The notes below the pieces were generated by a model. It made no database searches. It had not been told where the DNA came from and saw only the letters and a list, made by a program, of their open reading frames with translations. Below are positions 1 to 28,946 of a stretch of 64,000 nt of DNA, piece by piece; position 1 is the first letter of the stretch; the number at the start of each line of letters is the position of its first letter. Location: positions 192,001 through 256,000 of the forward strand of contig CAWCKY010000002.1 of assembly GCA_963796275.1 (NCBI GenBank). The letters are read 5' to 3'. Source of the DNA: an uncultured Acidobacteriota bacterium (GTDB lineage: Bacteria > Acidobacteriota > Blastocatellia > RBC074). Both the position numbers and the translations under genes were made by a program.

Positions 1-1496
1 GCTGCGACTCGCATCATCGATGCGCCCAGCCTCAAGCTTTTTAGAAAAGGCCCGGCTGTGTTAAGGACAGGTTGCGGAAAGAGCCCTAACCAGACGATTG
101 CGATAATCATCACACCCATGACGGCCATCTCACGGGCTGAGAGATCGGAGAAAGCCAGAGAATGCTCCCTCGGTCCGTGGAAAACCCGCTGGATGATCCA
201 CAATGAATAGACGGTCGCGAAGACTAAACCTGTTGCCGCGAGCACGGTCAGAGATACACTCGACCGGTAAGAGCCGAATAACACCAGGAACTCGCCGAGG
301 AAATTGCCCAACCCGGGCAGGCCGAGAGAGGCTAATGCAAAGAAGAGTGTGACCGCACCCATGCGCGGTGCGACAGACCAGAATCCGCCCATCCGATTCA
401 GATCGCGTGTATGGATACGCTCCTGAAGCGCACCCGCCAGGATGAACAGCGCGCCCGTGCTGATCCCATGACAGAGGATTTGAATCACCGCGCCTTGCAG
501 CGCCAGATCATTCGCGGCGAAGACTCCGAGAAGCACGAAGCCCATATGGCTGATGCTCGTGTATGCCACGAGCCGCTTGAGATCGGTTTGCGCGAAGGCC
601 AGGATTGCGCCATACAGAATCCCAATCACGCCAAGCGCCATCGCGACTGGGGCGAAATCGAGAGCCGCTTGAGGAAACAAAGGCACGGCGAAGCGGATCA
701 ATCCGTATGCCCCGGTTTTGAGCAAGAGGCCGGCCAGGATGACGCTGCCCGCCGTGGGAGCCTCGGTGTGGGCGTCAGGCAACCAGCTATGCACCGGTAC
801 GACCGGAAGCTTGACGGCGAAAGCGATGAAGAAACCGAGCATCAGGAGCATCGCTGTTTGCGGATTCATCGCAGTGCCAAGCAGTTGCGAATAATCGAAC
901 GTATAAGTGCCGGTATTCTGTCCATGGATAAAATAGAGCCCTAAAATCGCAGCGAGCATAAGCAAGCCGCCGGCCTGTGTGAAGATGAAGAACTTGATAG
1001 CAGCATAGATGCGATTTTCATGCCCCCAGATGCCGATGAGAAAGTACATCGGCACCAGCATCAACTCCCAGAAGAAGTAGAAAAGGAAGAGGTCTAAGGA
1101 GAGAAAGACGCCGACAATCCCGGCCAGAATCCACATGAGGTTGAAATGGAAGAAACCAACCCGCTCCCGAACCTCCGTCCACGATGCGACCACGGCCATG
1201 ATCCCAAGGAACAAAGTGAGCACGACCAATAGTAGACTCAGGCCATCTATGGCGAGGTGAAAGCTGATACCCAATTGCGGAATCCACTCTCGATTCAGCT
1301 CGGCCAGCAGCCATGAGCTTTCAGACGAGAACCGAGCCTGACCGAAATACCGTCCCCACAGAACCACCGCCAGGATAGAATCGACGCCCAGCGCGAGGAG
1401 CGAAATGTAGCGCGGCCACAAAGTATTCCAGCGACTGAGCAGCCACGCCAGAAGTCCGCCTGTCAGCAGAATGATGATAAGCCACGCCAGGATCAT
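1..1496 (-). CDS. nuoM: NADH-quinone oxidoreductase subunit M (3' end outside window)
   Basis: Not in the ORF track; read manually. ATG at 1496 overlaps the nuoL stop (ATGA). Translates MILAWLIIILLTGGLLAWLL..., with FYFFWELMLVPMYFLIGIWGH and AVKLPVVPVHSWLPDAHTEAPTAGSV motifs. Confidence 0.93.
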   Translation of the reverse strand, partial: MILAWLIIILLTGGLLAWLLSRWNTLWPRYISLLALGVDSILAVVLWGRYFGQARFSSESSWLLAELNREWIPQLGISFHLAIDGLSLLLVVLTLFLGIMAVVASWTEVRERVGFFHFNLMWILAGIVGVFLSLDLFLFYFFWELMLVPMYFLIGIWGHENRIYAAIKFFIFTQAGGLLMLAAILGLYFIHGQNTGTYTFDYSQLLGTAMNPQTAMLLMLGFFIAFAVKLPVVPVHSWLPDAHTEAPTAGSVILAGLLLKTGAYGLIRFAVPLFPQAALDFAPVAMALGVIGILYGAILAFAQTDLKRLVAYTSISHMGFVLLGVFAANDLALQGAVIQILCHGISTGALFILAGALQERIHTRDLNRMGGFWSVAPRMGAVTLFFALASLGLPGLGNFLGEFLVLFGSYRSSVSLTVLAATGLVFATVYSLWIIQRVFHGPREHSLAFSDLSAREMAVMGVMIIAIVWLGLFPQPVLNTAGPFLKSLRLGASMMRVA

Positions 1497-3385
1497 AGGA
1501 ACACCGCGATCGCTATTATCGCTGCCGCGCCGACAGCGATTCCCATTGCGTACCATCGCACTTGCCCTGTCACGGTACGGCTCAGCGCGCGATAGGTAGT
1601 TTGACTCAGCCAGGCTATCGCCTCATAGATGAGATCAATGAAATCGTTTTTGTAAGTCTGAGCCATCCAGATAAAAGGCCGGACAAATAACTTGTCGTAC
1701 AACCAATCGAAGCCCCATCCCGCATACCAAAACCTGTGCAACGCCGTGCCGAAATACGAGTGTGTCAAGCTTTCGGCCAGGCGAGGACGGCTTAGGTAGA
1801 AGAGATACGCGAGGTAAATTCCGATTAACGTAGTCATAGCGGCGATGACCTGAAATGCCAGTTCGATGCTCGTCTCAGCATGTCCAGAGCTCACTGCCGG
1901 TAAGGCGTTTTGCATTAACTCAGAGAAAAGTGGCCGGTTGCCCAGGGTGCGCGGCAATTCTACCAATCCGCCAGCTATCGACAGGAAGGCCAGAATGATC
2001 AATGGAATCTGCATCGGGATTCCGGGCGTTTGACCGACCTGACTCCTGGCCTCCCCGAAGAAAGTGATGAAGACCATGCGAAAGGTATAAATCGCAGTCA
2101 GCAAGGCGCCGATCAAACCTGCAGCCCAAAGCCACGGACTCCCTTTCGGCGAAGACCACGCTTCCCAGAGGATCATATCTTTGCTGTAGAAGCCGGCCGT
2201 CACCAGCGGCATTGCGGCCAGCGACGCGGCGCCGATGAGAAAAGTCACGAATGTAAGCGGAAGTTGCCTGCGCAAACCGCCCATCTCAAACATATCGTGC
2301 TCTTGCTGCAGACTCAGGATCACGACACCGGCGCCTAGGAAGAGAAGAGCTTTGAAGAAAGAATGGGTCATCAAGTGGAAGATGGCCGCTGACCACGCCC
2401 CAACTCCGAGAGCCAGAAACATATAACCGATCTGACTGATGGTGGAGTAAGCGAGGACGCGCTTGAGGTCCCGCTGCATGAGAGCGCTGAAGCCCGCCAT
2501 CAGCAGCGTTGCAGCCCCGATAATCGCCACAGCTGACTGCACGATCGGCGCGAGAGTGAAAAGCACGTTCATACGAGCGATCAAATAGACGCCAGCCGTC
2601 ACCATCGTAGCGGCATGGATGAGGGCGCTCACCGGTGTGGGACCAGCCATTGCATCCGGCAGCCACGTCTGTAAAGGGAGTTGTGCCGACTTACCCAAAG
2701 CGCCGCCCAGGAGCAGAGCTGCGGCGGCCACAGCGAGCGGCGAGCCAATCGGCCATTGCTGCGAGGCGCGTCCCATCAACTCCTGCATCTGCAAAGTACC
2801 CAAATGAGTGAAGAGCAGGAAGAGACCGACGGCCATCGCGGTATCGCCAACGCGGGTGACGATAAACGCTTTGCGAGCCGCGCTACCGTTGGCCGGCTCT
2901 TTGTACCAGAACCCAATGAGGAGATAACTACAAAGACCTACGCCCTCCCATCCCAGATAAAGCAGCAGCAAATTGTCGGCCAGCACCAGGGTCAGCATCG
3001 ATCCGACAAAGAGATTCATATATGCGAAGAAGCGGCTGTATCCTTCTTCAGCGATCATAAATTCCGCTGAATAGAGATGAATGAGAAACCCGACGAAAGT
3101 GATGACCAGCATCATCACTAACGATAACGCGTCGAGATAGAGAGTTATTGTGGGGGCGAAGCCTCCAATCGCGATCCATGTCCAGAGGGTTTGTGAGTAG
3201 GCATGACTTGCCGGCGGCGAACCGATGAAGCCGATGCTGAGGAGGATCGTCAGAATCGCTGAGGCACACACCGAACCGACACCGATGCCCGCCACGCCGG
3301 TGCGCGAGAGTCGAGAGCCTGCCAGCACCAGCACCAGGAACCCGGCGAAGGGCGAAACGGGTATTAACCACAATAACTCGAACAT
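1493..3385 (-). CDS. nuoL: NADH-quinone oxidoreductase subunit L
   Basis: WEGVGLCSYLLIGFWY and GKSAQLPLQTWLPDAMAGPTPVSALIHAATMV motifs. Start placed at MFELLWL (3385), just after the nuoK stop; the ORF track extends to 3418. Confidence 0.96.
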   Translation of the reverse strand: MFELLWLIPVSPFAGFLVLVLAGSRLSRTGVAGIGVGSVCASAILTILLSIGFIGSPPASHAYSQTLWTWIAIGGFAPTITLYLDALSLVMMLVITFVGFLIHLYSAEFMIAEEGYSRFFAYMNLFVGSMLTLVLADNLLLLYLGWEGVGLCSYLLIGFWYKEPANGSAARKAFIVTRVGDTAMAVGLFLLFTHLGTLQMQELMGRASQQWPIGSPLAVAAAALLLGGALGKSAQLPLQTWLPDAMAGPTPVSALIHAATMVTAGVYLIARMNVLFTLAPIVQSAVAIIGAATLLMAGFSALMQRDLKRVLAYSTISQIGYMFLALGVGAWSAAIFHLMTHSFFKALLFLGAGVVILSLQQEHDMFEMGGLRRQLPLTFVTFLIGAASLAAMPLVTAGFYSKDMILWEAWSSPKGSPWLWAAGLIGALLTAIYTFRMVFITFFGEARSQVGQTPGIPMQIPLIILAFLSIAGGLVELPRTLGNRPLFSELMQNALPAVSSGHAETSIELAFQVIAAMTTLIGIYLAYLFYLSRPRLAESLTHSYFGTALHRFWYAGWGFDWLYDKLFVRPFIWMAQTYKNDFIDLIYEAIAWLSQTTYRALSRTVTGQVRWYAMGIAVGAAAIIAIAVFL

Positions 3386-3386
3386 C

Positions 3387-3701
3387 TCACCCCCGCATCT
3401 TACTGGCCGCATCCACATCCAGAGTCTTCAGCCTGTGATAGAGCTGGAGTACCAGGGCCAAACCGACCGACACTTCTGCCGCGGCCACTGCCAGAATAAA
3501 GATGAACATAACCTGGCCATCGACCTGTTCCCATCGAGATCCGGCGACAACAAAGGCCAGCCCTGCCGCATTCAACATGATCTCAATGGACATCAGAATG
3601 AAGATGATGTTGCGACGCACCAACACGCCGATCAGCCCCAGGACAAAGAGCAACCCGGAAAGGAGCAGCCCGTATTCGACAGTCAGCGACGGCATGATCA
3701 T
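3387..3701 (-). CDS. nuoK: NADH-quinone oxidoreductase subunit K
   Basis: [22 protein letters not shown] and [11 protein letters not shown] motifs; operon position. Confidence 0.96.
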
Positions 3702-4201
3702 TACCTCTCTCTATATATATTTCGGCCGAGATGATAAGCGCCCACCAGACCCGCCAGTAGCAGCATGGCAGCCAACTCCACACCCAACAGGTAAGGGCCA
3801 AAAAGCGCAACCCCCACCTGTCGCGGCTCTATACTGATGACTCCGGATTGTTGGCGACCTGCGCGAGTGATCATGTAGACCAGCTCCGCCATCAGAATGA
3901 TCGCCAGGATCGCCGGCCCAATCCACATTCGCGCTTTCAACCACTGACTTTCCCGCATGACGGCCTCATGACCCAGGTTGAGCAGCATGATCACGAATAC
4001 GAAGAGCACCATGATCGCTCCTGCATAGATGATCACCTCCAGGGCAGCGATGAATGGGGCGCCCAGGCGGAAGAAGATCAATGCCACCGAGAGTAACGAC
4101 ACGATCAAGTAAAGCAAGGCATGCACGGCATTCAGCCGGGTGATCACCATCACCGTCGAAACAATCGCCACTGCTGCTGCGATGAAAAATACTGCGTCCA
4201 T
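3701..4201 (-). CDS. nuoJ: NADH-quinone oxidoreductase subunit J
   Basis: [12 protein letters not shown] and [22 protein letters not shown] motifs. Confidence 0.96.
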
Positions 4202-4231
4202 AGACTACAACTCTGTCTCGCCACTACTTGA

Positions 4232-4747
4232 TCACGGCATCAGACTGTGCACGTCTATAGGCGGCTCCTCATTCTTGGCCTCGCCTTTATCCTTCCCCCC
4301 AATTGCCAATCCGGCCACCCGGTAAAAGTTATAACCCGGATACTTGCCGGGGCCGTCGATCAGCAGATCCTCCTTCTCATAGACCAGGTTTTGCCGTTTG
4401 TATTCAGACATCTCGAAATCGGGAGTGAGCTGGATCGCATATGTGGGACACGCCTCCTCGCAAAAGCCGCAAAAGATGCAGCGCGAGAAGTTGATGCGAA
4501 AGAACTCCGGGTAACGCCGGCCATGCTCGTCCTCCGTCGCTTGCAAGGCGATGCAATCGACCGGACAGGCGACCGCGCACAAGTAGCAAGCAACACATCG
4601 CTCGCCTCCGTCAGGATCGCGCGAGAGGATGATACGCCCTCGCCACCTGGGCGGCAGATAAGGCTTCTCATCGGGATACTGAATTGTCTCCCGCCGTCGA
4701 AACATATGCAGAAATACCAACCACATGCTCTTCAGAATACTGATCAT
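4232..4747 (-). CDS. nuoI: NADH-quinone oxidoreductase subunit I (2x[4Fe-4S])
   Basis: [12 protein letters not shown] and [12 protein letters not shown] ferredoxin motifs. Confidence 0.97.
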
Positions 4748-4762
4748 CGTTTTCTCCTTCTA

Positions 4763-5722
4763 TCAGGCCGCGAGCACAATCGCTCCGGTGACGACAATGT
4801 TGAGCAATGTCAGCGGAAGCATAACCTTCCAGCCGTAAGCCATCAGTTGATCATAACGCGGCCTGGGAAGCGCGGCCCGCAGCAAGATGAACCCGCAAAT
4901 AAAGACGAAGGTCTTGAGAAGAAACAAGACCACCGGCGGCAGCACCGGCCCCAGCCATCCGCCGAAGAACAGCGACACGATCATGGCAGAGATCAGCGTG
5001 ATGCCGAGATATTCCCCGACGAAGAACATGCCGAATTTCATGCCGGAATATTCGGAATGATAACCGGCCACCAGCTCGCTTTCGGCTTCCGGCAGATCGA
5101 AAGGCAGCCGATGCGTCTCTGCGATACCGGCAATGAGGAAAGTTACCAGACCGAGAAACTGGGGGATGCAGAACCACAGGCCCCGCTGCGCTTCCACGAT
5201 CTCGCGCAAGTTAAATGACCCGGCAAGCATGACCACCCCCATGAGCGACAGCCCCATGAACACTTCATAGCTCAACATTTGAGCTGAGGCTCGCAAGCCG
5301 CCCAGCAACGAGTATTTGTTCCCCGACGCCCATCCAGCCAGCACCACGCTATAGACACCCAACGACGACATCCCCAGGAAGAAGAGCAGGCCTATGTTCA
5401 GGTCCACCACCTGAATACCTGGGGCAAACGGGATGATGGAGAAGGACATCAACATCGTCACTACGATTACAGCCGGGGCGATAATGAACACCGGCTTGTC
5501 GGCGAAGGGCGGATTCCAATCCTCTTTGGCAAATATCTTGATCATATCGGCCAGCACCTGCAGCAAACCGAAAGGGCCGACGCGATTAGGGCCATAACGG
5601 TCTTGCCAGAGCGCCAGCAGCCGGCGCTCCAGCCAGATCAGCCCTGCGGCGATGGTGAGTATGGCGATCAGCACGCCGGCGATAGTCATGAGTGATCGGA
5701 TGATTTCATTCATCTCCCTCAT
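4763..5722 (-). CDS. nuoH: NADH-quinone oxidoreductase subunit H
   Basis: [16 protein letters not shown] and [26 protein letters not shown] motifs. Confidence 0.97.
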
Positions 5723-8430
5723 CCTCTCGATAGACTGCCCCAGGCAGGCAAAGCAATCTCCGTTAGCTCCCGCAAGTCGGCGGGCAACCCGGCGACCCCT
5801 CTCGGTAATGCCGGTTGGAGCTTTACGGGAAGGCGATGTACAGAGCCATCCAGCGCCAGCTCTATCTCTTCCCCATCATTTACCCGAAGACCGGACGCAT
5901 CATCGGGATTTAGCGCCAGGTAAGGCTGTGGAGATCGTTCAGCAATGCCAGGTGACAAGATGCTTAACTCCTCCGAACCGAAGATATGGTAGAGAGGCAC
6001 AATCAACCACTCGCTTTCGCGAGACTTAAAGGCTGCCGGTACATCGCGGAAGTAATATACTTCCGCACCCGACGCAGGCTCGATCATGCGCTGACCAGGA
6101 TCCCCGCCTAGCAGCGGGCCGCCCACTTCATCCTGGAACTTATTTAATGCCTGCACTGAGTTCCACCCCGGCGCCCAGTAATGCGTGATGAACGGCGGCG
6201 GCGGCTCGCCTTCATAACCTTCCATTGAGAAAGCGAGCGGAGAGTCGGGGTCATTTGGCGGTCGAGGCTCGTTAACATCGATCTGAACCAGCATAGCTGT
6301 GCGCCCGCTGTACCGGTGTGGTTGGCGGGGTATCTTTTGTCCCGCGATGCGAAATCCTGCGGGCGGTGCGACCTTCAAAATCGGCGAACAGATAGGAATC
6401 GCCGCGGCCAGGGCGGAAGCGACGTCATCGAGGTTATACCAGGCCGCACCCTCAGAGTGGTTAGTGGCGATCATCACATCGCGCAGCCAGCGCCAGCTCT
6501 CCTGGATCTCCCCATTCGGCACAAATACCTGATAGAAGCGCTGCGCGCGCCCTTCGCTGTTCACCAGCGTGCCATCGCCCTCGGCAAAGGTAGCCGCCGG
6601 GAGAATCACATCAGCTTTAGACGTGGTGGGATTGGATAAGTGATCGATCGCAATAATATGCCTGGCAGCATTCAGCATCGTATCCACTGACTTCGCATCC
6701 GCCCGCCGATAGAGATCATTCTCCAGAATAATCACGGTCTCTGCAGCCTTCTGCTCCATAATTTTGAAAGTATCGTTGAGGCTATTTCCGCCGATGAGAG
6801 CTACGCCCAGGCTATTGCATTCAGGCACAGTGAAACATAGTTCGGCAGTTCGGCCGTTTTCGCACAAAGCCCGCGCCACGTTAGCGGCCGCCAGCATCAC
6901 TTCTTCGGAGCCGCAACTTGTTCCGGAGATGATCAAAGGCCGCTTGGCCCCTTTGAGCGCCTGAGCGATCCTGCCGGCCAATGAATGCAACTCCTCCGGC
7001 AGGTCTCTGACCGGCGGAGCGCCACCATTCAGCGCATGAGCCACCGCAAAACCCAGACGGGCCAGATCATCGGGCGCTGCGCGGTACTTCTCAGCAGCGA
7101 TATCGTCAAGTCTTGTGCTGCAGGTCGTCGCGATGAAAAGCGGCCCCTTCTCACCCTGAATTGCCTCGCGTACAGCGGCATCGTCCCACTCGGGGATTTT
7201 CAGCCTCGCAGCAATCTCCAGAGGCTTGCGCAGCACCGATCGGCGCAGGGCGAGCGCCAACCTCGGCGCTACATTTGTGAGATCCTCTCCCAGCAGCAGA
7301 ACCGCGTCAGCGAGCTCCGCGTCGTGCAGCGACGGCGAGCGCGCGGGACCTATCCTTAAAATGTTCCGCGCTGTAGCAATCAGGCGAGAATCGCGCTCGG
7401 ACATTCCAAGACAGAAGTGCTCCGGCCCGACCAGAGTACGCAGCGCAAAATTGGCCTCCAGCGACGCGCGCGGAGATCCGATCCCGATCACTCTGGAACT
7501 CTCGGAAAGGAGCGGCTTCAAGTATTGAATGATGAAATCTTTTGCAGCCGGCTCTAACAAGCCGCTTCCCTGCTTCCGAAGCAATGGCTGGCGAATTCTC
7601 CGATCTCTGTTCACAAACTCATAGCCGTAACGCCCGCGATCGCACAGGAAGTACCCATTGACTTCACCGTTATACCGGTTGTAGACCCGCCGCAGCTCAC
7701 CGTAACGCTCGCCGGGAATTGTGTTGCAGCCCAGACCGCAGTGCACGCAGATGGACGGCGCAGTCTGCAAATCCCACTTGCGCGTGTAGTGTTGCTTCAA
7801 TGTTTTATCGGTGAAGACTCCCGTAGGACACACCTCAACCAGGTTGCCGCTGAACTCATTCTCCAGAATGCCATCCTCAAAGCGGCCGAAGTAGACGTGA
7901 TCGTGCGCAGCAAAGACGTCCAGATCGCGCCCCCCGGCGTAGTCGCGATAGAATCGAATACAACGATAGCATTCGATACAACGGTTCATCTCGTGGTTGA
8001 CGAACGGGCCGAGATACTGATTGCGAAATGTCCGCTTCCGGAAACGGAAGCGCCGGTAAGTATGTCCGGTCATTACCGTCATATCCTGAAGGTGGCACTC
8101 GCCACCCTCATCACAGACCGGGCAATCGTGCGGATGGTTGACCATGAGCCATTCGATCACGCTCGCACGAAATGATCTCGCTTCCGAATCGTCGATTGAG
8201 ATGCGCGTGTTGCTGGCGGCCGGGGTCATGCAAGCCATCATCAGCCTGCCATGCGTATCCTTCTCGTCCCTGAACTGTTTCACCGCGCACTGGCGGCAGG
8301 CGCCGACCGAACCCAAAGCCGGATGCCAACAGAAGTAGGGTAGATCGAAGCCTAACGAAAGGCAGCTGTGAAGCAGGTTCTGACCATCTTCGACGGTGTA
8401 AGGTTGGTTATCGATATAGATAATCGCCAT
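5719..8430 (-). CDS. nuoG: NADH-quinone oxidoreductase subunit G (long E. coli type, with N7 motif)
   Basis: [42 protein letters not shown] and CVHCGLGC; 903 aa. Confidence 0.97.
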
Positions 8431-8433
8431 TCG

Positions 8434-9708
8434 CTATCTCCACGGACACCGACGCTCGTGAATGTGCCGCTCAAAATCATCTTTGAAATACTGCAGAGCG
8501 CTCTGCAACGGCTCCACCGCACCGGGAGCGAGCGCGCAAAAAGTAAGACCGGGCCCGAGAAATCTGGCATGCCAGGCCAGTCTCTCAAGGTCATCCGGCT
8601 GCCCCTGGCCATTCTCGATAGCCTGGAGAATTCGCGCTGTCCACGGCAGACCTTCGCGGCATGGCGTGCACCAGCCGCAAGACTCCTGGGCGAAGAAGTG
8701 TTCGAGGTTATGCACCAGACCGACCGGGCAGGTTTGATCGTCGAGTACGATCATTGTTCCGGTGCCCATCCGGCTGCCCGCTCTCTGCACCGAGGCATAA
8801 TCCATCCTCACATCCAGATGCTCCTCAACCAGGAAGTCGGTCGAAGCTCCACCCGGGATCACGCCACGGAATTTAAGACCATCGCGCATTCCGCCGGCAT
8901 GCTCTTCCAATATCTCCCGGATGGTAGTGCCCACCGGCAGCTCCCAGGCACCGGGCCGTTTGACCTTGCCGCTGACGCCATAGATTTTCGTCCCGCCTTC
9001 GCCGGTCAGGCTCAAGCCTTTGAACCATTCAGCTCCCTGGTTGATGATGTGGGGCACATTACAGAGGGTTTCGACGTTATTCACGATCGTCGGCTTGCCC
9101 CAGAGTCCGCTGACTTGCGGGTAGGGAGGTTTGGACCGCGGCGTAGCGCGTTTCCCTTCCAGGGCATTGAGCAGGCCCGTCTCTTCACCGCACATATAGC
9201 GGCCGGCGCTGATGTGGAGATGCAGCTCAAGGCTATAGCCAGACCCCACAATGTTTTTGCCCAGGTAGTTGCCCTCGTAAGCCTCGGCCAGTGCCTTTCG
9301 TAACCGTTTCGCCGCCAGCGTGTATTCCCCGCGCAAGAAGATATAAGCAACATCGGCCTGGATGGCATAGGAGCTGACGATCATGCCTTCGATCAGGTGG
9401 TGCGGATCGCCTTCGAGGAACAATCGGTCTTTGAATGTGCCCGGCTCCATCTCGTCAGCATTGGCAATTAGGTACTTGGGATGCGGAGCATCCGGGCCCA
9501 TTGGCACGAAGCTCCATTTTGTACCGGTCGGGAAACCGGCGCCGCCGCGACCCAGCAGATTGGATTGCTTAACCAGCTCCACCACTTCTTGTGGCCCCAT
9601 GCTTTGCAGAGATTTGCGCACCGCCTGATAGCCGCCTGCCTGTTCGTATTCTTTCAGATTCGGCGGCTCTCGATCGGGCCGGATGTTCCTGGTGAGCGGT
9701 CTTTCCAT
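8434..9708 (-). CDS. nuoF: NADH-quinone oxidoreductase subunit F
   Basis: GRGGAGFPTG, NADEMEPGTFKDR, GRYMCGEETGL and ESCGWCTPCREG motifs. Confidence 0.97.
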   Translation of the reverse strand: MERPLTRNIRPDREPPNLKEYEQAGGYQAVRKSLQSMGPQEVVELVKQSNLLGRGGAGFPTGTKWSFVPMGPDAPHPKYLIANADEMEPGTFKDRLFLEGDPHHLIEGMIVSSYAIQADVAYIFLRGEYTLAAKRLRKALAEAYEGNYLGKNIVGSGYSLELHLHISAGRYMCGEETGLLNALEGKRATPRSKPPYPQVSGLWGKPTIVNNVETLCNVPHIINQGAEWFKGLSLTGEGGTKIYGVSGKVKRPGAWELPVGTTIREILEEHAGGMRDGLKFRGVIPGGASTDFLVEEHLDVRMDYASVQRAGSRMGTGTMIVLDDQTCPVGLVHNLEHFFAQESCGWCTPCREGLPWTARILQAIENGQGQPDDLERLAWHARFLGPGLTFCALAPGAVEPLQSALQYFKDDFERHIHERRCPWR

Positions 9709-10187
9709 TAGATTTCTACCTTTGCTTCTATCGATTCGATGATCTGGCCGATCTTATGAATATCCAGATCCTGGTAAAGCTCGTCATCTATCATAAGTGC
9801 TGGGGCATGATCACAAGCTCCAAGGCATGGAATGGGTAACATCGTAAACTCCCCATCCGGACTGGTCTCGCCCAGCTTGATCCTCAGGCGGGCCGTCAGA
9901 TTCTCGCGGATCCGGTCGTACCCCATGATCCAGCAACTGACGCTATCGCAAATGAGGATTACATGCTTCCCGACGGGTTTGCGGAAGATCAAGTTGTAAA
10001 AAGTCGCGACGCTATCTAACTCATCAGGCGTCATCTCCAGAAACCCGGCCAGATCCCTGATGCCCTCATCGGAGACCCAGCCCCGGTGACGCTGGATAAT
10101 CTTCAGCGCATCAATGCACACGGCTCGCTTCTGAGCATAGTGTTGAAACTCAGCCTCGATCTCCCGTCTCTCCTCTTCAGTGAGCAT
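9708..10187 (-). CDS. nuoE: NADH-quinone oxidoreductase subunit E
   Basis: CDSVSC ... CLGAC [2Fe-2S] ligands and VATFYNLIFRKPVG. Confidence 0.97.
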   Translation of the reverse strand: MLTEEERREIEAEFQHYAQKRAVCIDALKIIQRHRGWVSDEGIRDLAGFLEMTPDELDSVATFYNLIFRKPVGKHVILICDSVSCWIMGYDRIRENLTARLRIKLGETSPDGEFTMLPIPCLGACDHAPALMIDDELYQDLDIHKIGQIIESIEAKVEI

Positions 10188-10215
10188 ATTTCTACCTATT
10201 TCTCTCCCTTACGCT

Positions 10216-11964
10216 TCAGCGATCCACATCGGCCAGAACAAAATCTATGCTGCCCAGGATCGCGAGCAGATCGGGCACCATCAGACCGCGACTGATCAGC
10301 GGAACCATTTGCATGTGCGGAAATGAAGGCGCGCGGATGCGGACGCGATAGGCCATCGTGCCGCCGTCGCTTATCAGGTAGTAACTGTTGGTACCCTTGG
10401 TCGCTTCAATTGTGACTTCGGCCTCGCCCGGCGGTATCACCGGCCCCCAACTGACGCTCAGGAAATGGGTGATGAGGGTCTCGATGTCATACATAGTGCG
10501 CTCTTTGAGCGGCGGAGTCGTTAAGGGATGGTCTGATTTGTACAGGCCGGACGGCAGATGATTCATGCATTGCTCGACGATTCTCAGGCTCTGGCGCATC
10601 TCTTCAACGCGCACGACGGACCGGTCATAGCAATCACCATGCTGGGCAGTGGGAATGTCGAACTCGAATTGATCGTAGCCGGAATAAGGCCGTCTCTTGC
10701 GGAAATCCCACTCTAGCCCACAGGCGCGCAAGCCAGGCCCTGTCACGCCCCATTCGATGGCCTCGTCCAGGCTGTAGGCTCCGATGCCTATGGTGCGCGC
10801 CCTGAAAATACGGTTCTGCATCACCAGTTTGTCATACTCTGCTAGCCTGCGATTCATGTAAGGGATGAAGTCTCGCACCAGCTTGTCCCATCCTTCAGGC
10901 AGGTCTTGCGCCACTCCCCCTATGCGGAACCAGCTCGGGTGCATGCGGCCGCCGCAAATAGCTTCGACAATGTCGAAGATCCGCTCGCGGTCGGTGAACA
11001 TATAAAACACCGGCGAGAGCGCTCCGACATCCTGAGCGAATGTGCCGTACCAGACCAGATGGCTGGCGAGTCGAAAGAATTCCGCCATCATGACGCGAAT
11101 CACCTTCACTCGGTCGGGCACCTCGATCCCAGCCAGTTTCTCGATCGATAAGACGTAGGCGAGGTTATTCATCACCCCGCCGAGGTAATCGACCCGATCG
11201 GTATAAGGAAGGTAGGTATGCCATGACTGCCGTTCGCCCATCTTTTCGGCTCCCCGGTGATGGAAGCCGATCTCCGGCACGGCATCGACGATCTGTTCGC
11301 CGTCGAGTTGCAGCACGATGCGCAGCACGCCATGGGTTCCGGGATGTTGTGGCCCCAGATTGAGGAACATGAAATCGGCATCTTCACTGCTTCGTTTCAG
11401 TCCCCATTCTTCTGGGTGGAATCGCAGCGCTTCTTGTTCAGCTTCCTGCTTCTCCTCGGATAGGCGGAAAGGCTCCATCTCAGTGGCGCGTGCGGGATGC
11501 TCTTTACGGAGAGGATGGCCTATCCATGTGGGTGGCATTAGGATCCTACGGAGATGAGGATGGCCGGTGAAGGTGATGCCGAACATGTCCCAGACCTCGC
11601 GCTCATACCAATTCGCCGCAGGCCAGAGGTCGGTAACCGTCGGCAACGAGGGGTACTCACCTGCGAGCGGTACTTTGAGCCGGATGTCCTGGTTCCGTTC
11701 GAAGGAGAGGAGATGGTAAACGACTGTAAAATCGCTCGGCGGTCGGCTTTCGCGATGGCCCCGGAATCGCTCGTCAATGGCTGTGAGGTCATAGAGCATG
11801 AGATAAGGTCTGACTGCCTCAGTTTTGAGGTACCGTAGTATTTCATGCGCTTTGTCCTGAGCCACCCACAAGGTAGGGATGTCATCGCGCGTGGATTGCG
11901 GCACGAAAGCTATATCAGCAAAGACTTGCCCCAATTCCTCGAAGATTGTCGATGAACTATTCAT
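10216..11964 (-). CDS. nuoCD: Fused NADH-quinone oxidoreductase subunit C/D
   Basis: C part: [22 protein letters not shown] part: [22 protein letters not shown] and C-terminal DFVLADVDR. Confidence 0.97.
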
Positions 11965-12614
11965 ACCTCATTGGGGGAGCGTAAAATTGTGATCTGCTGC
12001 CTCTCTGCACGTTTCATATCCTTCATAGAGGGAGGCGTTGGTCGCACCACGCCCTGCGGGCCAATCACCCAACTGAGCGGACGTTGTTCTTTCCCCACTG
12101 CCTGTTGAAGCAGTGTTAAGCCTTCCATAAAAGTGCTTGGGCTCGGCGGACAACCCGGCACGTAGAGGTCTACTGGAAGAAACTTATCCACACCCTGAAC
12201 AACGCTGTAGATATCATACATCCCGCCGGAATTGGCGCATGACCCCATGGATATCACCCAGCGCGGTTCCATCATCTGCTCATGAAGTCGTTTGATGATC
12301 GGCGCCATCTTTATGAACACGGTGCCGGCAATTACCATCAGGTCGGCTTCGCGCGGCGTACCGCGAATCACCTCAGCTCCAAAACGCGCGATGTCGTACT
12401 TGCTCGTGATGCTCGTTGCCATCTCGACAAAACAGCACGAGAGGCCAAAATTAAACGGCCAGATGGAGTTCTTTCGCCCCCACGCCAGAAGGTCTTGCAA
12501 CCGTGCGAGCATGAGGTTGCGCCGCACTGCGCTCTCGAAAGAACCGTCACCATCGGCAGATGGTAGGGGGGCAGTCGTTTTACTCAACTTCCATTGCATA
12601 CTTTTGAATGTCAC
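11961..12614 (-). CDS. nuoB: NADH-quinone oxidoreductase subunit B
   Basis: [19 protein letters not shown] and YVPGCPP. Start may be the ATG at 12599. Confidence 0.96.
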
Positions 12615-12673
12615 AGGGGGGTGCGAGAGGGATATGTCTCATCTCGCACCTTTGGACTTCGATCAATCCCCGC

Positions 12674-13066
12674 CTATGTTCTCCTCCTCCTACTTCCCCA
12701 GTCGAGCGCGCCTATCCGCCATTCGTAAATCAGGGCGGCGACCAGCACGCCGATGAAAATCAAGGCTCCCACGTAACCTGTCCAGCCCAGTTCGCGGAAA
12801 GCTACCGCCCAAGCGAAGATGAATACAGCTTCCAGATCGAAGATCAGAAAGAGAATCGCGATCAAATAAAATTTGGCAGAAAACCGTAGCCGGGCGGAAC
12901 CGGTTGAGACGATCCCCGACTCATAAGGCTCGCCCGTCGCTCTCTCCCGATGACGCTGACCCAGAAGGTATGACAGCGCCAGCATCCCGGCGACCATCAC
13001 AATCACAGCCACGAAGTAGACCGCGAGAGGCCAAAGAGTAATAGTCTCTGTTGCGGGAGAGTTCAA
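12674..13066 (-). CDS. nuoA: NADH-quinone oxidoreductase subunit A
   Basis: PYESG and KFYLIAILFLIFDLEAVF motifs; TTG start preceded by an AGAGGG RBS. Confidence 0.95.
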   Translation of the reverse strand: MNSPATETITLWPLAVYFVAVIVMVAGMLALSYLLGQRHRERATGEPYESGIVSTGSARLRFSAKFYLIAILFLIFDLEAVFIFAWAVAFRELGWTGYVGALIFIGVLVAALIYEWRIGALDWGSRRRRT

Positions 13067-13204
13067 ATTAATACCCTCTTGATCAGGTCATCGGTTTTGC
13101 CGGAGCGGGCTATCAAATGGGAGGATGAATAGTGAACGCACGATCAAATAACGTGTAATTCAGATAACCACAGGAGATTGCACAAGCTATTTACCGTACG
13201 ATTA

Positions 13205-13259
13205 ACTCTAACAGGAAAGAGCTAAGGAAGTCATAAATGAGCCATCAAGATTCCATAAG
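13205..13259 (-). promoter_or_regulatory. Putative nuo promoter: four 11-bp-spaced half-sites plus extended -10 TGtTAGAGT
   Basis: Minus strand reads CTTATGG..TTGATGG..TTTATGA..CTTAGCT (plus coordinates 13253, 13242, 13231, 13220), then 9 bp, then TAGAGT (13205-13210). Confidence 0.7.
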
Positions 13260-13312
13260 GGAGCTGGAAAAGACTGTTAGCACGGAAGTTGAATGAAGAA
13301 ACTAATAGACTT

Positions 13313-13378
13313 TTTACGCTGCCTTTATGGAATCTTGATGGTTTATTTATGACTTCCTTAACCTGTCACTGATAAAGT
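13313..13378 (+). promoter_or_regulatory. Putative two-component-system promoter: five 11-bp-spaced half-sites plus extended -10 TGaTAAAGT
   Basis: TTTACGC 13313, TTTATGG 13324, TTGATGG 13335, TTTATGA 13346, CTTAACC 13357; TAAAGT at 13373-13378. 13325-13360 is a 34/36 inverted copy of 13223-13258. Confidence 0.7.
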
Positions 13379-13526
13379 TAAGCGTTATCATAAATCTTAC
13401 TTGAGCACCGGCTAATTGACCTGTCGAGAGCTACGCTGACAGACTGTTAAAAGAGCGACGTAAAACTATAATCAGACAAACATTCATCAAGTTCATCAAT
13501 CAGTTATCTCTTCTATCTCTTCGCTT

Positions 13527-14603
13527 ATGTTACAAGTGATGCGATCTAAGCTGTTGCGCTATGGTGTTGCGGTACTGCTCGTAACGCTCGCGTTGCTATT
13601 GGCGGTGCTGGTTAGATCGTGGCTTGAGCAGAGCGTTTTCCTTCTATTTTTTGGGGCAGTAATGATGAGCGCCTGGTATGGCGGACTGGGGCCAGGGTTG
13701 CTGGCTACACTTCTGTCCGTGGGCATGATCGAATCCTACCTGCTTTCTCCAGCCCGGGGCCAGGCCATTCCGCGGTTGATCATCTTTGTGTTCATGGCTG
13801 TCCTGGTAAGCTCGCTCAATGAGGCGCGCAAACGGTCCGAAGAGAGGCAGCGCTCCCTGACCGAAGCTCTCAAACAAAGTAACGAACTGAAAAGCGCATT
13901 GCTTGCCTCCGTCTCTCACGACTTGCGAACGCCGCTCACTTCTATTCGCGCAGCGATTGACAGCCTGATGAATGAGGAATTCAACTGGGATAAGGCCACG
14001 CTTCGGGAACTCCATCTGATCATCAGCGAAGAAATTCATCGGTTGACGAAGCTGGTCGAGAATCTGTTGGAGATGGCCCGGATCGAATCGGGCGAGTTGC
14101 ACTTCTCACCGCAATGGGGATCGGTTGTTGAGATTTGCGACAATGCACTTGAGCAATGCGCCGTCGAGCTTCGCCATCACATGGTGCATGTGGATTGCCC
14201 CGAGAATCTTCCCGGAGTTAAAGTTGATTCGCGGCTGATAGCGGAAGCGCTGACCCACGTGGTCGAGAACGCTGCCAGATATTCGCCGCGTGGCAGCGAG
14301 ATACTCGTGCGCGGAAGACTCGACGGCAATCAACTGTTGATAAGCGTCGCGGATCAAGGACCAGGATTTGCGCCGGAAGACATAGATCGCATCTTTGATA
14401 ATTTGTACCGCAGCTCGCATCCGAACATTCATAGCAGCCACGGCACAGGCATGGGGCTTGCCATCGCGCGCGGGATGATCGAGGTACACGGCGGTAAAAT
14501 CCGGGTTGAGAGCGAGTCCGGTCGGGGGGCTACTTTCATCTTCGAGTTGCCGGTCGAGTATAGCGGGACGTCAGAATCCAAAGTTGCAAAGGAGACGCTG
14601 TAA
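13527..14603 (+). CDS. Sensor histidine kinase, truncated KdpD-like (DUF4118-type TM region + HisKA + HATPase)
   Basis: N-terminal hydrophobic helices with AWYGGLGPGLLATLLS; H-box LLASVSHDLRTPLTSI; ENAARYSP, DQGPG and GTGMGLAI. Lacks the KdpD N-terminal, USP and GAF domains. Confidence 0.9.
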   Translation: MLQVMRSKLLRYGVAVLLVTLALLLAVLVRSWLEQSVFLLFFGAVMMSAWYGGLGPGLLATLLSVGMIESYLLSPARGQAIPRLIIFVFMAVLVSSLNEARKRSEERQRSLTEALKQSNELKSALLASVSHDLRTPLTSIRAAIDSLMNEEFNWDKATLRELHLIISEEIHRLTKLVENLLEMARIESGELHFSPQWGSVVEICDNALEQCAVELRHHMVHVDCPENLPGVKVDSRLIAEALTHVVENAARYSPRGSEILVRGRLDGNQLLISVADQGPGFAPEDIDRIFDNLYRSSHPNIHSSHGTGMGLAIARGMIEVHGGKIRVESESGRGATFIFELPVEYSGTSESKVAKETL

Positions 14604-15292
14604 TGAAGAATCCGGTCATCCTCATAGTAGACGATGAATTACAAATCCTGCGCGTAATGCGGGCGAGCCTTCCAGCGCGCGGTTATGAAGTGCGGACGGC
14701 GCCCGGCGGCGAGGAGGCTCTCGACGAAATTAGCAAGGAAATGCCTGATCTGATCATTCTCGATCTGGTCATGCCCGGGATGTCGGGGCTGGAAGTTTGT
14801 CGTCGAGTACGCGAATTCTCTTCAGTACCGATCATCGTCCTTTCAGCGAAAGAGGCGGAAAGCGACAAAGTGGCGGCGCTCGAAATGGGCGCTGACGATT
14901 ACGTGACCAAGCCTTTTGGCTTAGATGAATTGTTCGCGCGCATGCACGCGGTACTCCGGCGCATCTCCGCTGCCGAAGCTCATTCTTCGGTGCTCACCGC
15001 TGGCGACTTGACGATTGAGACTGACGAGCGGCGGGTGACGGTAGCCGGGCGGGAAGTGAAATTGACGCCAAAAGAGTTCGAGGTGCTCAAGTACCTGGTG
15101 AGCAACGCCGGCAAGGTGGTCACCCATCGTGCGCTGCTGCAAGCTGTCTGGGGCTCCGAAGCCACGGAACAGACCGATTACCTGCGCGTCTTCGTCAACC
15201 AGCTGCGCGGTAAAATCGAGCCTGTTCCGCGACACCCCCAGTACATCTTAACTGAACCGTGGGTCGGTTATCGTTTTACCCCCAATGGATAA
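14603..15292 (+). CDS. OmpR-family response regulator, KdpE-like
   Basis: VDDE..DLIILDL..GADDYVTKPF receiver domain; winged helix with KdpE-type YLRVFVNQLRGKIEP..PQYILTEPWVGYRF. Translationally coupled to the kinase. Confidence 0.93.
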   Translation: MKNPVILIVDDELQILRVMRASLPARGYEVRTAPGGEEALDEISKEMPDLIILDLVMPGMSGLEVCRRVREFSSVPIIVLSAKEAESDKVAALEMGADDYVTKPFGLDELFARMHAVLRRISAAEAHSSVLTAGDLTIETDERRVTVAGREVKLTPKEFEVLKYLVSNAGKVVTHRALLQAVWGSEATEQTDYLRVFVNQLRGKIEPVPRHPQYILTEPWVGYRFTPNG

Positions 15293-15299
15293 AGATATG

Positions 15300-15339
15300 T
15301 AGTAAAGAAGTCATAAACAAACCATGAAAAACCTATTAA
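15300..15339 (-). promoter_or_regulatory. Additional copy of the half-site array, pointing antisense into the regulator gene
   Basis: Minus strand TTAATAG..TTCATGG..TTTATGA..TTTACTA (plus 15333, 15322, 15311, 15300). Shares TGTTTATGACTTCTTTA with the actA copy. No good -10 at the usual distance. Confidence 0.55.
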
Positions 15340-15934
15340 GGCACTAGATATTATCCCTGAATACATTCATCGATGCCTCCTGGTGCGGCCGAATATCTAC
15401 TCACTGCTGGACGATTCCTGGGATGGACGAATGGGAAGTCATTAGCGTCGTTGAAATGAATAGGAAGAGGAGCAGGTGGTTGATGCGGGCGCCTCATAAC
15501 AGGGTAGACACATTACCATTATCAACTCGTCCTCCTCCAGTAATACTTGTTGGCCAGTGGGTGTATAGAATAGGTAAGGATGGCGTGCCTGTGAACACCC
15601 GGATAGAACGGATAGCATCGGCGTTTACACTCGCCTTTTGCAGCGCGCGATTTCAACACGGTTGCTGACTACAATACTCACGCTGAGGTTGAACGACAGA
15701 GAGCTTACCGGCTTCGGTCTCTAGACATTCCCCGGACTTTTTGCGCCGCATCGAGTTGCGCTGATGAGAGCAAATTCGCCGAGCAAAATCCGAACGTTAG
15801 ATATTTACGACTAAAGGATTCCTTCACTTGGGCCACACATCTTGATCTATTATATAAAACATACTCTCCTTCCCATGGATTTCGCGTGCTTCGCGTTCTC
15901 GTACTTTCTACTTCAGTCCCGCGCTAACAACCTC

Positions 15935-16000
15935 TTTACGGTTTCCTGATGATCTCTTAACGGCTTGTTTATGACTTCTTTATCTCTTTCCTGCTAGATT
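15935..16000 (+). promoter_or_regulatory. Putative act-cox promoter: five 11-bp-spaced half-sites plus extended -10 TGcTAGATT
   Basis: TTTACGG 15935, CTGATGA 15946, TTAACGG 15957, TTTATGA 15968, TTTATCT 15979; TAGATT at 15995-16000. The 3' part is nearly identical to the nuo copy (TTTATGACTTCyTTAnCTCTTTCCTGyTAGA). Confidence 0.72.
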
Positions 16001-16087
16001 CGAATTTCCAATGAACATCACCAGCTCCTTCGAGATATTAAAGAAGCTCGAACGCCGTGGACAGACAGAAGTGAAAGAGGCGGTGAT

Positions 16088-16747
16088 ATGCCTCAGATTT
16101 TTCATCGCAGCACCAATACGATTTCGAGGGTGAGTATTTTCGGCAGCGTATTCATTTTGTCTTTTCTGATCTGGACGCTTTACCAATTGCAAAGCTCATC
16201 CTACAACACGCGTGCATTTGTCGCACGCGAGCAGCCAGTGCAGTTCAGTCATAAGCATCACGCGGGCGATGACGGAATAGACTGTCGGTATTGCCATACG
16301 ACAGTCGAGACCTCCGCTTTCGCCGGAATTCCACCGGTCAAGACTTGCATGAACTGCCACTCGCAGCTATTCGCCGACAGTGACTATCTGGCGCTGGTGC
16401 GCGATAGCTTCAAAAGCGGCAAGCCTATCAGGTGGACGCGCGTCCACGATCTTCCCGACTTTGCCTACTTCAACCACAGCATTCACGTCAACAAAGGCAT
16501 AGGCTGCTCGACCTGTCACGGGCGCGTGGACCAGATGCCGCTGACGTGGCAAGTGGCTTCGCTTCAGATGGAGTGGTGTCTTCAGTGCCATCGCAACCCC
16601 GCGGCATATGTCAGGCCTCGCGATCAGGTCTTCAATATGGAATGGCAATCGCCGCGCAATCAAATCGAAGAAGGAAAGAGGCTGGTCGAGCAGTACCACA
16701 TACAAAGTCCGAATGTGATTACGAATTGTTCAACCTGCCATCGCTGA
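16088..16747 (+). CDS. actA: Alternative complex III pentaheme cytochrome c subunit
   Basis: Five CxxCH motifs (CRYCH, CMNCH, CSTCH, CLQCH, CSTCH), QPVQFSHKHH and an N-terminal TM helix. Confidence 0.94.
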   Translation: MPQIFHRSTNTISRVSIFGSVFILSFLIWTLYQLQSSSYNTRAFVAREQPVQFSHKHHAGDDGIDCRYCHTTVETSAFAGIPPVKTCMNCHSQLFADSDYLALVRDSFKSGKPIRWTRVHDLPDFAYFNHSIHVNKGIGCSTCHGRVDQMPLTWQVASLQMEWCLQCHRNPAAYVRPRDQVFNMEWQSPRNQIEEGKRLVEQYHIQSPNVITNCSTCHR

Positions 16748-19700: not shown

Positions 19701-19786
19701 TACGAGCTGCTCGCCGAACTCAATACGAGGCCGCGCACGACTTATCTCGCTTCGGTGCGCAATCCGAACCCTGAGCTCGAGGAGAT

Positions 19787-19790
<4 letters not shown>
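16764..19790 (+). CDS. actB: Alternative complex III subunit B (molybdopterin-oxidoreductase-like + Fe-S domain, variant Tat leader)
   Basis: [16 protein letters not shown] leader; [14 protein letters not shown]; C-terminal [37 protein letters not shown] and EKCTYC. Confidence 0.95.
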
Positions 19791-21227
<1,437 letters not shown>

Positions 21228-21719: not shown

Positions 21720-22499
21720 GTGATGTCGCGAGCTGAAAAATCAAATATCGAAAACCGAAAGTCGAGGGTCAAAAGTGCAGGATTCTATTGCGAGCATTTT
21801 ATTTCACCCCGAACCGGCGTCATCGAAGCGACAAAAAATATCGGAAGCAGCAGGCGATCATTTTTGCTATTCGCCTTTTGCCTTTTGCCTTTCGCCTTTC
21901 TACTCGCTGGCTGCCGTCAGGATATGCACGATCAGCCAAAGTATACGCCGCTCAGACCCAGCACGTTTTTTGAGGATGGCAAGTCAGCACGTCCCCTAGT
22001 CGATGGTACAGTGCCGCGCCGCAACTTGAGAGAAGACCCATCCCAATCCGACGGCGATTCGAATGGAGGACGGTCACTTCGGATCGATTTAGCTTCTGGG
22101 CCTCAACAAACACAGCAACCGGATATTTCAAAAGCTATTACTCCCCCGATTCAGGTCACGCAGGATGTGCTGGATCGCGGGGAGGAACGATTCAACATTT
22201 CTTGCACCCCGTGTCACGGGCGAGTGGGCGACGGCAACGGGATGATTACGCAGCGCGGTTTCCGCCGCCCGCCGTCGTATCACATTGACCGATTGCGTGG
22301 CGCTCCCATTGGTCATTTCTTCGACGTGATGACGAACGGCTTCGGCGCAATGCCGAGCTACGCCGATCAGGTTGCACCGCAAGACCGCTGGGCCATCGCG
22401 GCTTACATTCGCGTCCTGCAACTGAGCCGCAATGCAACGCTCGCCGACGTGCCCCCTGGAGAGCGCAGCCGATTGAATGCAAGAGGGCAGGCGCGATGA
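21720..22499 (+). CDS. actE: Alternative complex III monoheme cytochrome c lipoprotein
   Basis: Lipobox LLAGC followed by RQDMHDQPKY; CTPCH; GFGAMPSY. Start position uncertain. Confidence 0.9.
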   Translation: MMSRAEKSNIENRKSRVKSAGFYCEHFISPRTGVIEATKNIGSSRRSFLLFAFCLLPFAFLLAGCRQDMHDQPKYTPLRPSTFFEDGKSARPLVDGTVPRRNLREDPSQSDGDSNGGRSLRIDLASGPQQTQQPDISKAITPPIQVTQDVLDRGEERFNISCTPCHGRVGDGNGMITQRGFRRPPSYHIDRLRGAPIGHFFDVMTNGFGAMPSYADQVAPQDRWAIAAYIRVLQLSRNATLADVPPGERSRLNARGQAR

Positions 22500-23677: not shown

Positions 23678-23696
23678 GATTTCAGGGGAGGTTGCA

Positions 23697-24143: not shown

Positions 24144-24235
24144 CGAGGTGGATCGTGAAGATAGAAAACAGAGCGGAAGGCTATCAACAATATGCGTCAT
24201 GCAGAAAGCGAATTGTCATAAAGGAGGAGCGTAAG

Positions 24236-28809: not shown

Positions 28810-28946
28810 ACATCATCAAACAAGACGTCCGACGTGGTGTCGAAAAACGGCCAATCAGCAGGAGAAGCCCAAAAGAACACTTTGGAACTTTTGTAAAAAC
28901 GCTCTGTGCAGAACAACCATCGCCGGAGCAGAGAAGGCGAACCAAG

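Follow-up and report, generated by a model that had tools for sequence, protein, structure and literature searches.

The DNA considered here, referred to as the window, is a stretch of 64,000 nucleotides (nt) from the genome of an uncultured Acidobacteriota bacterium (G000, 9,456,497 bases in 7 contigs; the window is G000:C2:192001-256000). It carries an operon for respiratory complex I (nuo), a two-component system that pairs a histidine kinase with a response regulator, and an operon for alternative complex III (ACIII) with a caa3 oxidase (act-cox). A common operator-promoter element lies in front of all three, and this element and its candidate regulator are the subject of the present analysis. 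The gene identities in the window were confirmed by Pfam, namely nuoA-L, a DUF4118-HisKA-HATPase_c kinase, an OmpR-family regulator, actA-E and cox. Labels beginning with G stand for genomes of relatives and those beginning with L for the loci and contigs compared; G006 belongs to a different genus of the same family. The features are as follows.

1493..13066, minus strand: second complex I operon (Pfam)
12674-13066 nuoA, 11961-12614 nuoB, 10216-11964 nuoCD, 9708-10187 nuoE, minus strand (Pfam)
8434-9708 nuoF, 5719-8430 nuoG, 4763-5722 nuoH, 4232-4747 nuoI, minus strand (Pfam)
3701-4201 nuoJ, 3387-3701 nuoK, 1493-3418 nuoL, minus strand (Pfam)
13198..13270, minus strand: nuo promoter/operator, shared element, 62.7 bits in a matrix derived from G006
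13313..13385, plus strand: kinase/regulator promoter/operator, shared element, 47.4 bits
13527..14603, plus strand: minimal membrane histidine kinase, 358 amino acids (aa) (Pfam, NCBIfam)
14603..15292, plus strand: OmpR/PhoB-family response regulator, KdpE lineage clade A, 229 aa (Pfam, NCBIfam, tree)
15303..15343, minus strand: fourth array copy, core match without -10, 14.6 bits
15935..16007, plus strand: act-cox promoter/operator, shared element, 76.5 bits
16088..29291, plus strand: ACIII-caa3 superoperon (Pfam)
16088-16747 actA, 16764-19790 actB, 19787-20476 and 20385-21227 actC in two frames, plus strand
actD ending at 21736, 21720-22499 actE, 22496-23677 putative actF (named by position, without a Pfam match), plus strand
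23661-24143 unnamed open reading frame (ORF), 24155-26143 SCO1-COX2-cytochrome c fusion, plus strand
26144-27817 COX1, 27829-28491 COX3, 28516-28809 COX4, 28806-29291 DUF488, plus strand

The core of the element, TTTATGACTTCYTTA, occurs at 13223-13237 (minus strand), 13346-13360 (plus), 15303-15317 (minus) and 15968-15982 (plus). The four copies align as a homologous element of about 65 nt in which TTTAYG-like half-sites recur every 11 bp, four or five to a copy. In the kinase copy these are TTTACG (13313), TTTATG (13324), TTGATG (13335), TTTATG (13346, the core) and CTTAAC (13357), and in the act copy TTTACG (15935), CTGATG (15946), TTAACG (15957), TTTATG (15968, the core) and TTTATC (15979). 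The nuo copy, read on the minus strand, has CTTATG (13259), TTGATG (13248), TTTATG (13237, the TTTATGAC core) and CTTAGC (13226). An extended -10 of the form TGnTAnAnT, its TA 19 nt past TTTATGAC, is present in three of the four copies, with the letters TGATAAAGT at 13370-13378 (kinase), TGCTAGATT at 15992-16000 (act) and TGTTAGAGT at 13213-13205 (nuo); the copy behind the regulator gene lacks it. The main half-site, 16 nt upstream of the TG in the extended -10, occupies the usual position of a -35, and transcription is predicted to start near 13198 (nuo), 13385 (kinase) and 16007 (act). A scan with the sigma-70 consensus found none of the three promoters and no recognisable -35 hexamer (2 promoter-like sites against 2.6 expected). 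As the three promoters are without a -35, dependence on an activator is to be expected. Terminator-like sites were at chance level as well (4 against 3.3 expected), so no terminator can be called between the regulator gene and act. The sequence-only reading of this DNA had already described the core, the 11-bp phasing and the fixed distance to the -10 as common to three promoters, and all of this was recovered. It had also seen the nuo and kinase arrays as an inverted repeat with 34 of 36 positions identical; these positions lie inside an inverted repeat of 64 nt that is 81% complementary. The only Rfam match over 12900-16300 falls on this inverted promoter pair (13224-13359). It is to the plant family MIR172, whose gathering score of 70 it misses with 28.6 bits, and was rejected as an artefact of the hairpin potential of the pair.

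The core is nearly unique to this place in the genome. At up to two mismatches the window contains 4 matches to TTTATGACTTCYTTA where 0.09 are expected, a count attained in 0 of 100 shuffles. Genome-wide there are 4 exact matches, the same 4 at up to one mismatch and 25 at up to two, and all four exact copies fall inside 2.8 kb. A motif widely dispersed in the genome would have spoken against the regulon that the sequence-only reading proposed; the genome-wide scan gave no such picture. A mobile element or dispersed repeat was rejected on these four genomic copies and on a footprint that is conserved while its flanks diverge.

The fourth copy differs from the other three. It starts 11 nt past the stop codon of the regulator gene, is oriented back into that gene and lies within a segment of 617 nt (15293-15911), which is replaced by 117 letters in a soil contig that shares about 90% identity with the window. 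The same contig still joins the kinase and regulator genes to the act promoter. On L252 a homologue of the fourth copy, sharing 26 identical nt with it, does have a -10; it is divergent to the act promoter, at 175 bp from the act site. Because this homologue is a divergent promoter with a -10, the fourth copy is most likely the relic of a decayed divergent promoter. It is not a working promoter; it lacks a -10 and lies in a segment that is replaced in the related contig.

The element is conserved across genera. G006 shares with this genome a regulator that is 82% identical, a kinase 65%, nuoB 91% and actA 85% identical. At up to one mismatch the core matches G006 four times, against one match for the control, and all four sites have the same half-site phasing and the same spacing to the -10. 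One site precedes actA, one a long operon ending in MgtC, two DUF4118 kinases and the regulator, one an operon of an unknown protein with a phosphoesterase, and one a HAMP kinase. A weight matrix was built from these 4 G006 sites only and scanned against all 18,912,098 positions of the present genome. The act promoter ranked first (76.5 bits), the nuo promoter second (62.7) and the kinase promoter third (47.4); the next-best position, at 23.0 bits, is an array of a paralogous system, and the fourth copy reaches 14.6. A matrix scan had been proposed by the sequence-only reading, and with G006 as the source of the sites it returned the three window promoters as ranks 1, 2 and 3. The element is not general to act operons. 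Among 30 act upstream regions, comprising the window's own and those of relatives, it was found only in the window and in the G006 orthologue, and 28 are without it. Several of the regions without the motif have, by reading, TTGACA-type promoters and a conserved leader. In the family such 'housekeeping' act operons (L052, L054-L058, L062, L065) combine the TTGACA-type promoter with a conserved leader CAAATCCGAAAATTCACAAGCTTCGG... and an GAGGTGGAGGTC ribosome-binding region, and this leader could be an unrecognised operator or RNA element.

In metagenomes a strict pattern (the core, N9 and TGNTANANT) gave 22 sites, spread over 19 loci of 16 contigs. Of these sites 3 lie before act-cox, 1 before nuoA, 7 before DUF4118-kinase or kinase/regulator operons (one being a tandem upstream site), 2 before kdpFAB and 9 before other or unknown genes (OpuAC, PilZ, Usp, CBS, DUF2231, unknowns); at least 2 of the last 9 resemble chance matches in AT-rich DNA. 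L244 repeats the divergent pair of the window, with a kinase 79% and a nuoA 82% identical and one site for each; the -10 region of its nuo copy is identical to that of the window and the kinase copy differs at 2 of 18 positions. The array and the -10 are nearly invariant in five act upstream regions and in the nuo/kinase region of L244, with diverged flanks. L243 was not counted as independent because it is almost identical to a G006 site. In the 33 sites collected, columns -11 and -22 show a conserved TTnATG which was never part of any search pattern. The element also precedes DUF4118-kinase/regulator operons in G006, G166, L237, L238, L253 and L254. On WBZR01000465.1 and Ga0187892_10003300, act-cox stands immediately upstream of one or two more sites, followed on WBZR01000465.1 by an MgtC-kinase-kinase-regulator operon. 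The link of the two-component system with act-cox is therefore recurrent, in a variable arrangement. These loci place the motif of relatives before their own kinase/regulator operon as well as before act-cox. The link to nuo is seen solely in this genome and on the metagenome contig L244.

The regulator has the receiver (PF00072, E 3.5e-32, residues 6-114) and the winged-helix Trans_reg_C domain (PF00486, E 3.9e-23, residues 149-225) that define the OmpR/PhoB family. The solved relative that comes closest is E. coli KdpE (E 8e-57), collinear over residues 6-225, and the closest named records for the regulator are metagenome-assembled genomes of Acidobacteriota, one of them labelled Blastocatellia. 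Among the NCBIfam models KdpE (NF007820) is the best at 221.5 bits, under the equivalog cut-off of 325 and nearly tied with RpaB at 220.6, while ArcA gives 125.7. It is not a KdpE in the strict sense, as it scores below the NF007820 cut-off and has nuo and act-cox, not kdpFABC, as neighbours. R195, R202 and T217 (numbering of chain 4kny_A) are conserved in the alignment of the regulator with E. coli KdpE; they would correspond, two positions off, to the DNA-contact residues R193, R200 and T215 named in PMC3264566. By its sequence the regulator appears suited to DNA recognition of the KdpE type, with the contact residues kept and TTTAYR repeats 11 bp apart.

A tree was made of 30 regulators, leaving out most of the 80 loci with less than about 47% identity, the short duplicates L002-L006, and L009. 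The regulator falls in clade A (support 93/97) together with the kdp-linked KdpEs of G023, G075, G025, L083 and L085, which in these sister families lie inside kdpFABC-kdpD-kdpE operons. Half of the clade A rows (5 of 10) have kdpA and/or the KdpD N-terminal domain at the same locus, and the subgroup of the window, G166, G006, G001 and G019 has no kdp genes within the loci compared, some of which are short. The DNA-binding domain of the regulator carries the clade A signature K153, N199, and clade B has fixed differences such as G199 for N199. The same operator stands at the kdp operons of this clade. Upstream of kdpFABC the exact core TTTATGACTTCCTTA is found in G075 and L249 and the exact variant TTTATGACTTCTTTA in L250, with the same phasing; the kdp promoters of L249 and L250 also carry the -10 at the same spacing, and those of G025 and L085 have one-mismatch versions of the core. 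The description of the regulator as KdpE-like therefore stands, on its best solved relative, on its clade and on the match of the window motif to the kdp promoters of that clade. G075 (L226 19229-19265) contains in addition a second array of three half-sites, with TGCTAGCAT, before a small ORF and a 773-aa amino-acid permease gene converging on kdpE. Expansion of the regulon may already have begun in G075, where the clade A KdpE would still control kdpFABC.

The kinase is made up of DUF4118 (PF13493, residues 12-109), HisKA (PF00512, 122-189) and HATPase_c (PF02518, 234-344). It has the DUF4118-DHp-CA layout of KdpD and neither the N-terminal KdpD domain (PF02702) nor Usp. Only 12 residues lie between DUF4118 and HisKA, which leaves no room for GAF or PAS. 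The kdp-linked kinases of clade A have a linker of GAF size at this point; in that of G075 the gap is about 145 residues. Kinase orthologues are those of G006 and L244 already mentioned. As the kinase is reduced beyond the known separate-chain forms, its input may well have changed. A second kinase (DUF4118, PAS, HisKA, HATPase_c) lies to the left of the window at G000:C2:188970-190443 (L020 8970-10443), in two frames; it is 61% identical to the window kinase over the C-terminal part and converges on nuoN. In G006 and G166 the second kinase, the window-type kinase and the regulator are contiguous, whereas here the nuo operon separates the two kinases.

The genome has two paralogous regulators of clade B, on C6 and C1, each 57% identical to that of the window. 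One of them adjoins kdpAB and KdpD N-terminal genes: the only kdpA (C6:2713185-2714952) is beside it, and the single PF02702 gene of the genome is at C6:2707588-2708208. The clade B systems have arrays of their own, four TTTAYG half-sites at 11-bp spacing, which score at most 23 bits with the matrix (L018 4988-5031, 5545-5588 and 11657-11700; L019 10827-10870). They are found upstream both of the kdp region and of their own kinase, and just behind a regulator gene. A further near-duplicate array is at G000:C2:724521. It was also observed that kdpA and kdpB (G000:C6:2711252-2714952, L018 252-3952) are broken over several reading frames.

Both respiratory operons have paralogues elsewhere in the genome. 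The nuo operon of the window has the genes of complex I including nuoE, nuoF and nuoG, with candidates for nuoM and nuoN past the start of the window, a putative nuoN (PF00361, an antiporter-like protein confirmed by Pfam) and a putative nuoM (an ORF weakly similar to nuoL). The paralogous nuo operon, 26-51% identical, is at G000:C6:1286705-1301596. The act-cox operon has the full set of an ACIII-caa3 superoperon (actA multihaem c, actB Fe-S, actC NrfD-like, actD, actE and COX2/1/3/4), and its paralogous cluster is at G000:C2:655260-668722; orthologous act operons are found in G006 and on metagenome contigs. The ORF at 24155-26143 is a single one of 662 aa with SCO1/SenC, COX2 (cupredoxin) and cytochrome c, a fusion of a copper chaperone with caa3 oxidase subunit II. 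DUF488, which closes the act-cox operon here (28806-29291), lies near nuoA in G006 (L164 5392-5784), and in G166 (L225 8459-9794) DUF488 and an FNR-like reductase stand behind an operator copy of their own beside the nuo operon. DUF488 may be a recurrent member of the regulon.

Taken together, our analysis points, with a probability of about 0.68, to a KdpE-lineage system that has been freed from kdp. The four elements would be one operator-promoter module bound by the enclosed regulator, which would co-induce itself, nuo and act-cox. That the window's regulator binds the window's arrays is the most economical reading and a likely one. The sequences themselves show the architecture of the element, its singularity in the genome, its conservation over several genera, its occurrence together with this regulator clade and its identity with kdp operators; binding by this regulator, activation as against repression, the starts of transcription and the signal are inferred. 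The regulator would descend from a KdpE lineage which in sister families stays in kdpFABC-kdpD-kdpE operons under the same operator. In the present lineage the link to kdp would have been lost, another KdpE paralogue adjoining kdp and a minimal DUF4118 kinase serving as partner. Phosphorylated dimers of the regulator could then occupy the 11-bp-phased TTTAYG half-sites from about -72 to -23, of which the strongest lies over the missing -35, and recruit sigma-70 RNA polymerase to the extended -10 promoters in a PhoB-like manner. This would co-induce the kinase/regulator operon itself (positive feedback), the second complex I and the second ACIII-caa3 operon. Activation of the three operons is proposed because the main half-site takes the place of the -35, as it does at PhoB-like promoters.

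Several points weigh against this explanation. It rests on comparison of sequences throughout, and an array that reaches down to -23 could also hinder the polymerase. A control pattern, the core read backwards, matches this genome 4 times at up to one mismatch, equal to the 4 of the core, so that the significance lies in the exactness of the copies, their clustering in 2.8 kb and their extended similarity, not in the count. Across 301 genomes of the class most single core matches are at control level. This class-wide census, made at up to one mismatch, is therefore useless as a statistic; it served only to choose G166, G286, G052, G075 and G094, of which G166 and G075 were inspected more closely. 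The conservation of the core and -10 columns in the metagenome sites is partly built in, because the search pattern already contained both. The two paralogous KdpE-like regulators use similar half-sites and could cross-bind. The gene order is not conserved either. The sequence-only reading had suggested a check of the synteny of nuo, kinase, regulator, act and cox, and among 30 relatives 0 of the 5 closest regulator orthologues have nuo or act adjoining. In 3.6 kb at the orthologous nuo promoter of G006 nothing matches even with 3 mismatches allowed, and the only 1-mismatch site at nuoA of G166 is without a -10 and 3.3 kb upstream, with genes of the opposite strand between. As the G006 promoter lacks the motif and the G166 site is weak and distant, nuo appears to be a lineage-specific member of the regulon. 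Finally, actC lies in two overlapping frames here (19787-21227, break near 20430) and in one frame in G006; soil contigs of relatives from two runs are one letter shorter at 20430. The break may stem from an indel in the assembly, or the ACIII membrane subunit may recently have been inactivated by mutation; with actC frameshifted in the assembly the ACIII branch may not work here. The reading frames of kdpA, kdpB and the second kinase are broken as well, which together with actC hints at indel errors of the assembly, or else at a decaying kdp operon. The genomes compared support the KdpE lineage, the shared operator and the links to act and to the system itself; they do not support a conserved gene order, a working promoter in the fourth copy or a general link to nuo, which is patchy. 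The idea of a 'whole inducible chain' is weakened by the actC frameshift of the assembly as well.

It is unlikely that the regulator binds the arrays as a repressor or dual regulator, the operons being off until a signal removes phosphorylation. The array does overlap the region from -35 to -23, with half-sites four and five falling between core and -10. Repression through arrays of direct repeats is known of some regulators in the OmpR family, ArcA among them, according to the abstract of PMC4173790. However, promoters with no recognisable -35 should have low basal activity without an activator. Moreover, the same architecture is found at kdpFABC of the sister clades, where KdpE is an activator (PMC3264566).

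We also consider it improbable that a conserved promoter is read here by some other factor, whether a paralogous KdpE-like regulator, an unrelated transcription factor or an alternative sigma factor recognising ATGACTTC and TAnAnT. The paralogues do use very similar TTTAYG half-sites at 11 bp, and the binding favoured here is deduced from sequence. Yet the paralogues own distinct arrays beside their own genes, scoring no more than 23 bits with the matrix, and their DNA-binding domains differ at clade-specific positions. The motif, for its part, accompanies clade A regulators across genera, including at their kdp promoters, and the 11-bp phasing with a TG-extended -10 suits an OmpR-type activator acting with sigma-70, not a promoter of ECF (extracytoplasmic function) type. 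The last alternative, in which the copies arose by recent duplication on the spot or as a small mobile repeat and regulate nothing, could appeal to the nearly identical inverted repeats of nuo and kinase and to a non-functional fourth copy in a segment missing from a relative, but it is very improbable given only 4 copies in 9.46 Mb, an element kept at orthologous promoters of other genera with diverged flanks, its fixed position relative to the -10 and the start codons, and a cross-genome prediction that works.

The freed KdpE-lineage regulon, if it exists, would be new in one respect. The ACIII-A2 caa3 superoperons (PMC8407424), the KdpE half-sites (PMC3264566) and split KdpD (PMC11018627) are already known. 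In our searches, judged from titles and the openings of abstracts, we met neither a described regulator of ACIII-caa3 operons nor a KdpE-type regulon with respiratory complexes in it. What is most likely new is an OmpR/PhoB-type regulon in which the operator would have been kept and the set of targets replaced. With one operator in use at kdpFABC, at the operon of the regulator itself, at act-cox and at nuo in a natural series of relatives, this looks like a regulon cleanly rewired while the DNA specificity was kept. These respiratory genes would gain their first candidate regulator, which, if confirmed, would be the first known one for ACIII-caa3, with a whole regulon replaced under an unchanged operator. 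The nature of the signal is a matter of more doubtful speculation. It is possible, though we think it rather unlikely, that an ion-sensing lineage of KdpD-module kinase and KdpE has become, in soil Blastocatellia, the master switch for a dedicated spare respiratory chain, with ionic, osmotic or membrane-energetic stress as the inducer. If so, stress would induce a full proton-pumping line from NADH through complex I and ACIII to caa3, with genes for MgtC, Usp, CBS and DUF2231 as further targets of this switch in relatives, and ion homeostasis would be coupled directly to the capacity to build proton-motive force. Apart from this reading, the locus suggests that the duplicated respiratory complexes of large soil genomes are spare chains with conditional expression and not redundant copies. 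To our knowledge gene regulation is almost uncharted in Acidobacteria, which are among the most abundant soil bacteria. The present locus offers a sharply defined operator, a candidate cognate regulator and a small, testable set of targets.

It remains to compare the locus with systems already described. In the ACIII-A2 superoperon of cultured Acidobacteria, caa3 oxidase genes come after the act genes within a single transcription unit (PMC8407424), and act-cox in the window is arranged alike. The difference is that the window's paralogous copy has a dedicated operator, whereas PMC8407424 names no regulator and has 0 mentions of 'two-component'. With ArcB/ArcA and RegB/RegA (PrrB/PrrA) the window shares a two-component system whose regulator, of the OmpR family or related, acts or would act on repeats at respiratory promoters. 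The regulator lineage is however unrelated (ArcA 125.7 against KdpE 221.5 bits), the sensor modules differ, and the window system has no pointer to quinone or redox sensing.

The pho box of PhoB is a nearer likeness in architecture, as 11-bp direct repeats replace the -35 before a good -10, and several operons share the box with the regulator's own; the sequence of the half-sites and the lineage of the regulator are different. For the pho box PMC3264566 gives only general features. With KdpD/KdpE the likeness extends to the proteins, since the regulator is collinear with E. coli KdpE and forms a clade with kdp-linked KdpEs, and the kinase has the KdpD module DUF4118. In E. coli kdp the two KdpE half-sites lie further upstream of the promoter, whereas the four to five half-sites of the window overlap the -35. 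The TTTAYG half-sites at 11 bp nevertheless resemble the TTTATA and TTTACA, with 5 bp between them, that E. coli KdpE binds (PMC3264566). Separate KdpD kinase chains are most common in Acidobacteriota and Chloroflexota, according to PMC11018627, and such chains were seen here in G023 and G075; the window kinase differs in being without the N-terminal, Usp and GAF parts of KdpD. Unlike KdpD/KdpE, the window system lies apart from kdpFABC, which is on another contig beside a clade B paralogue, and the genes downstream of its promoters are those of respiratory complexes.

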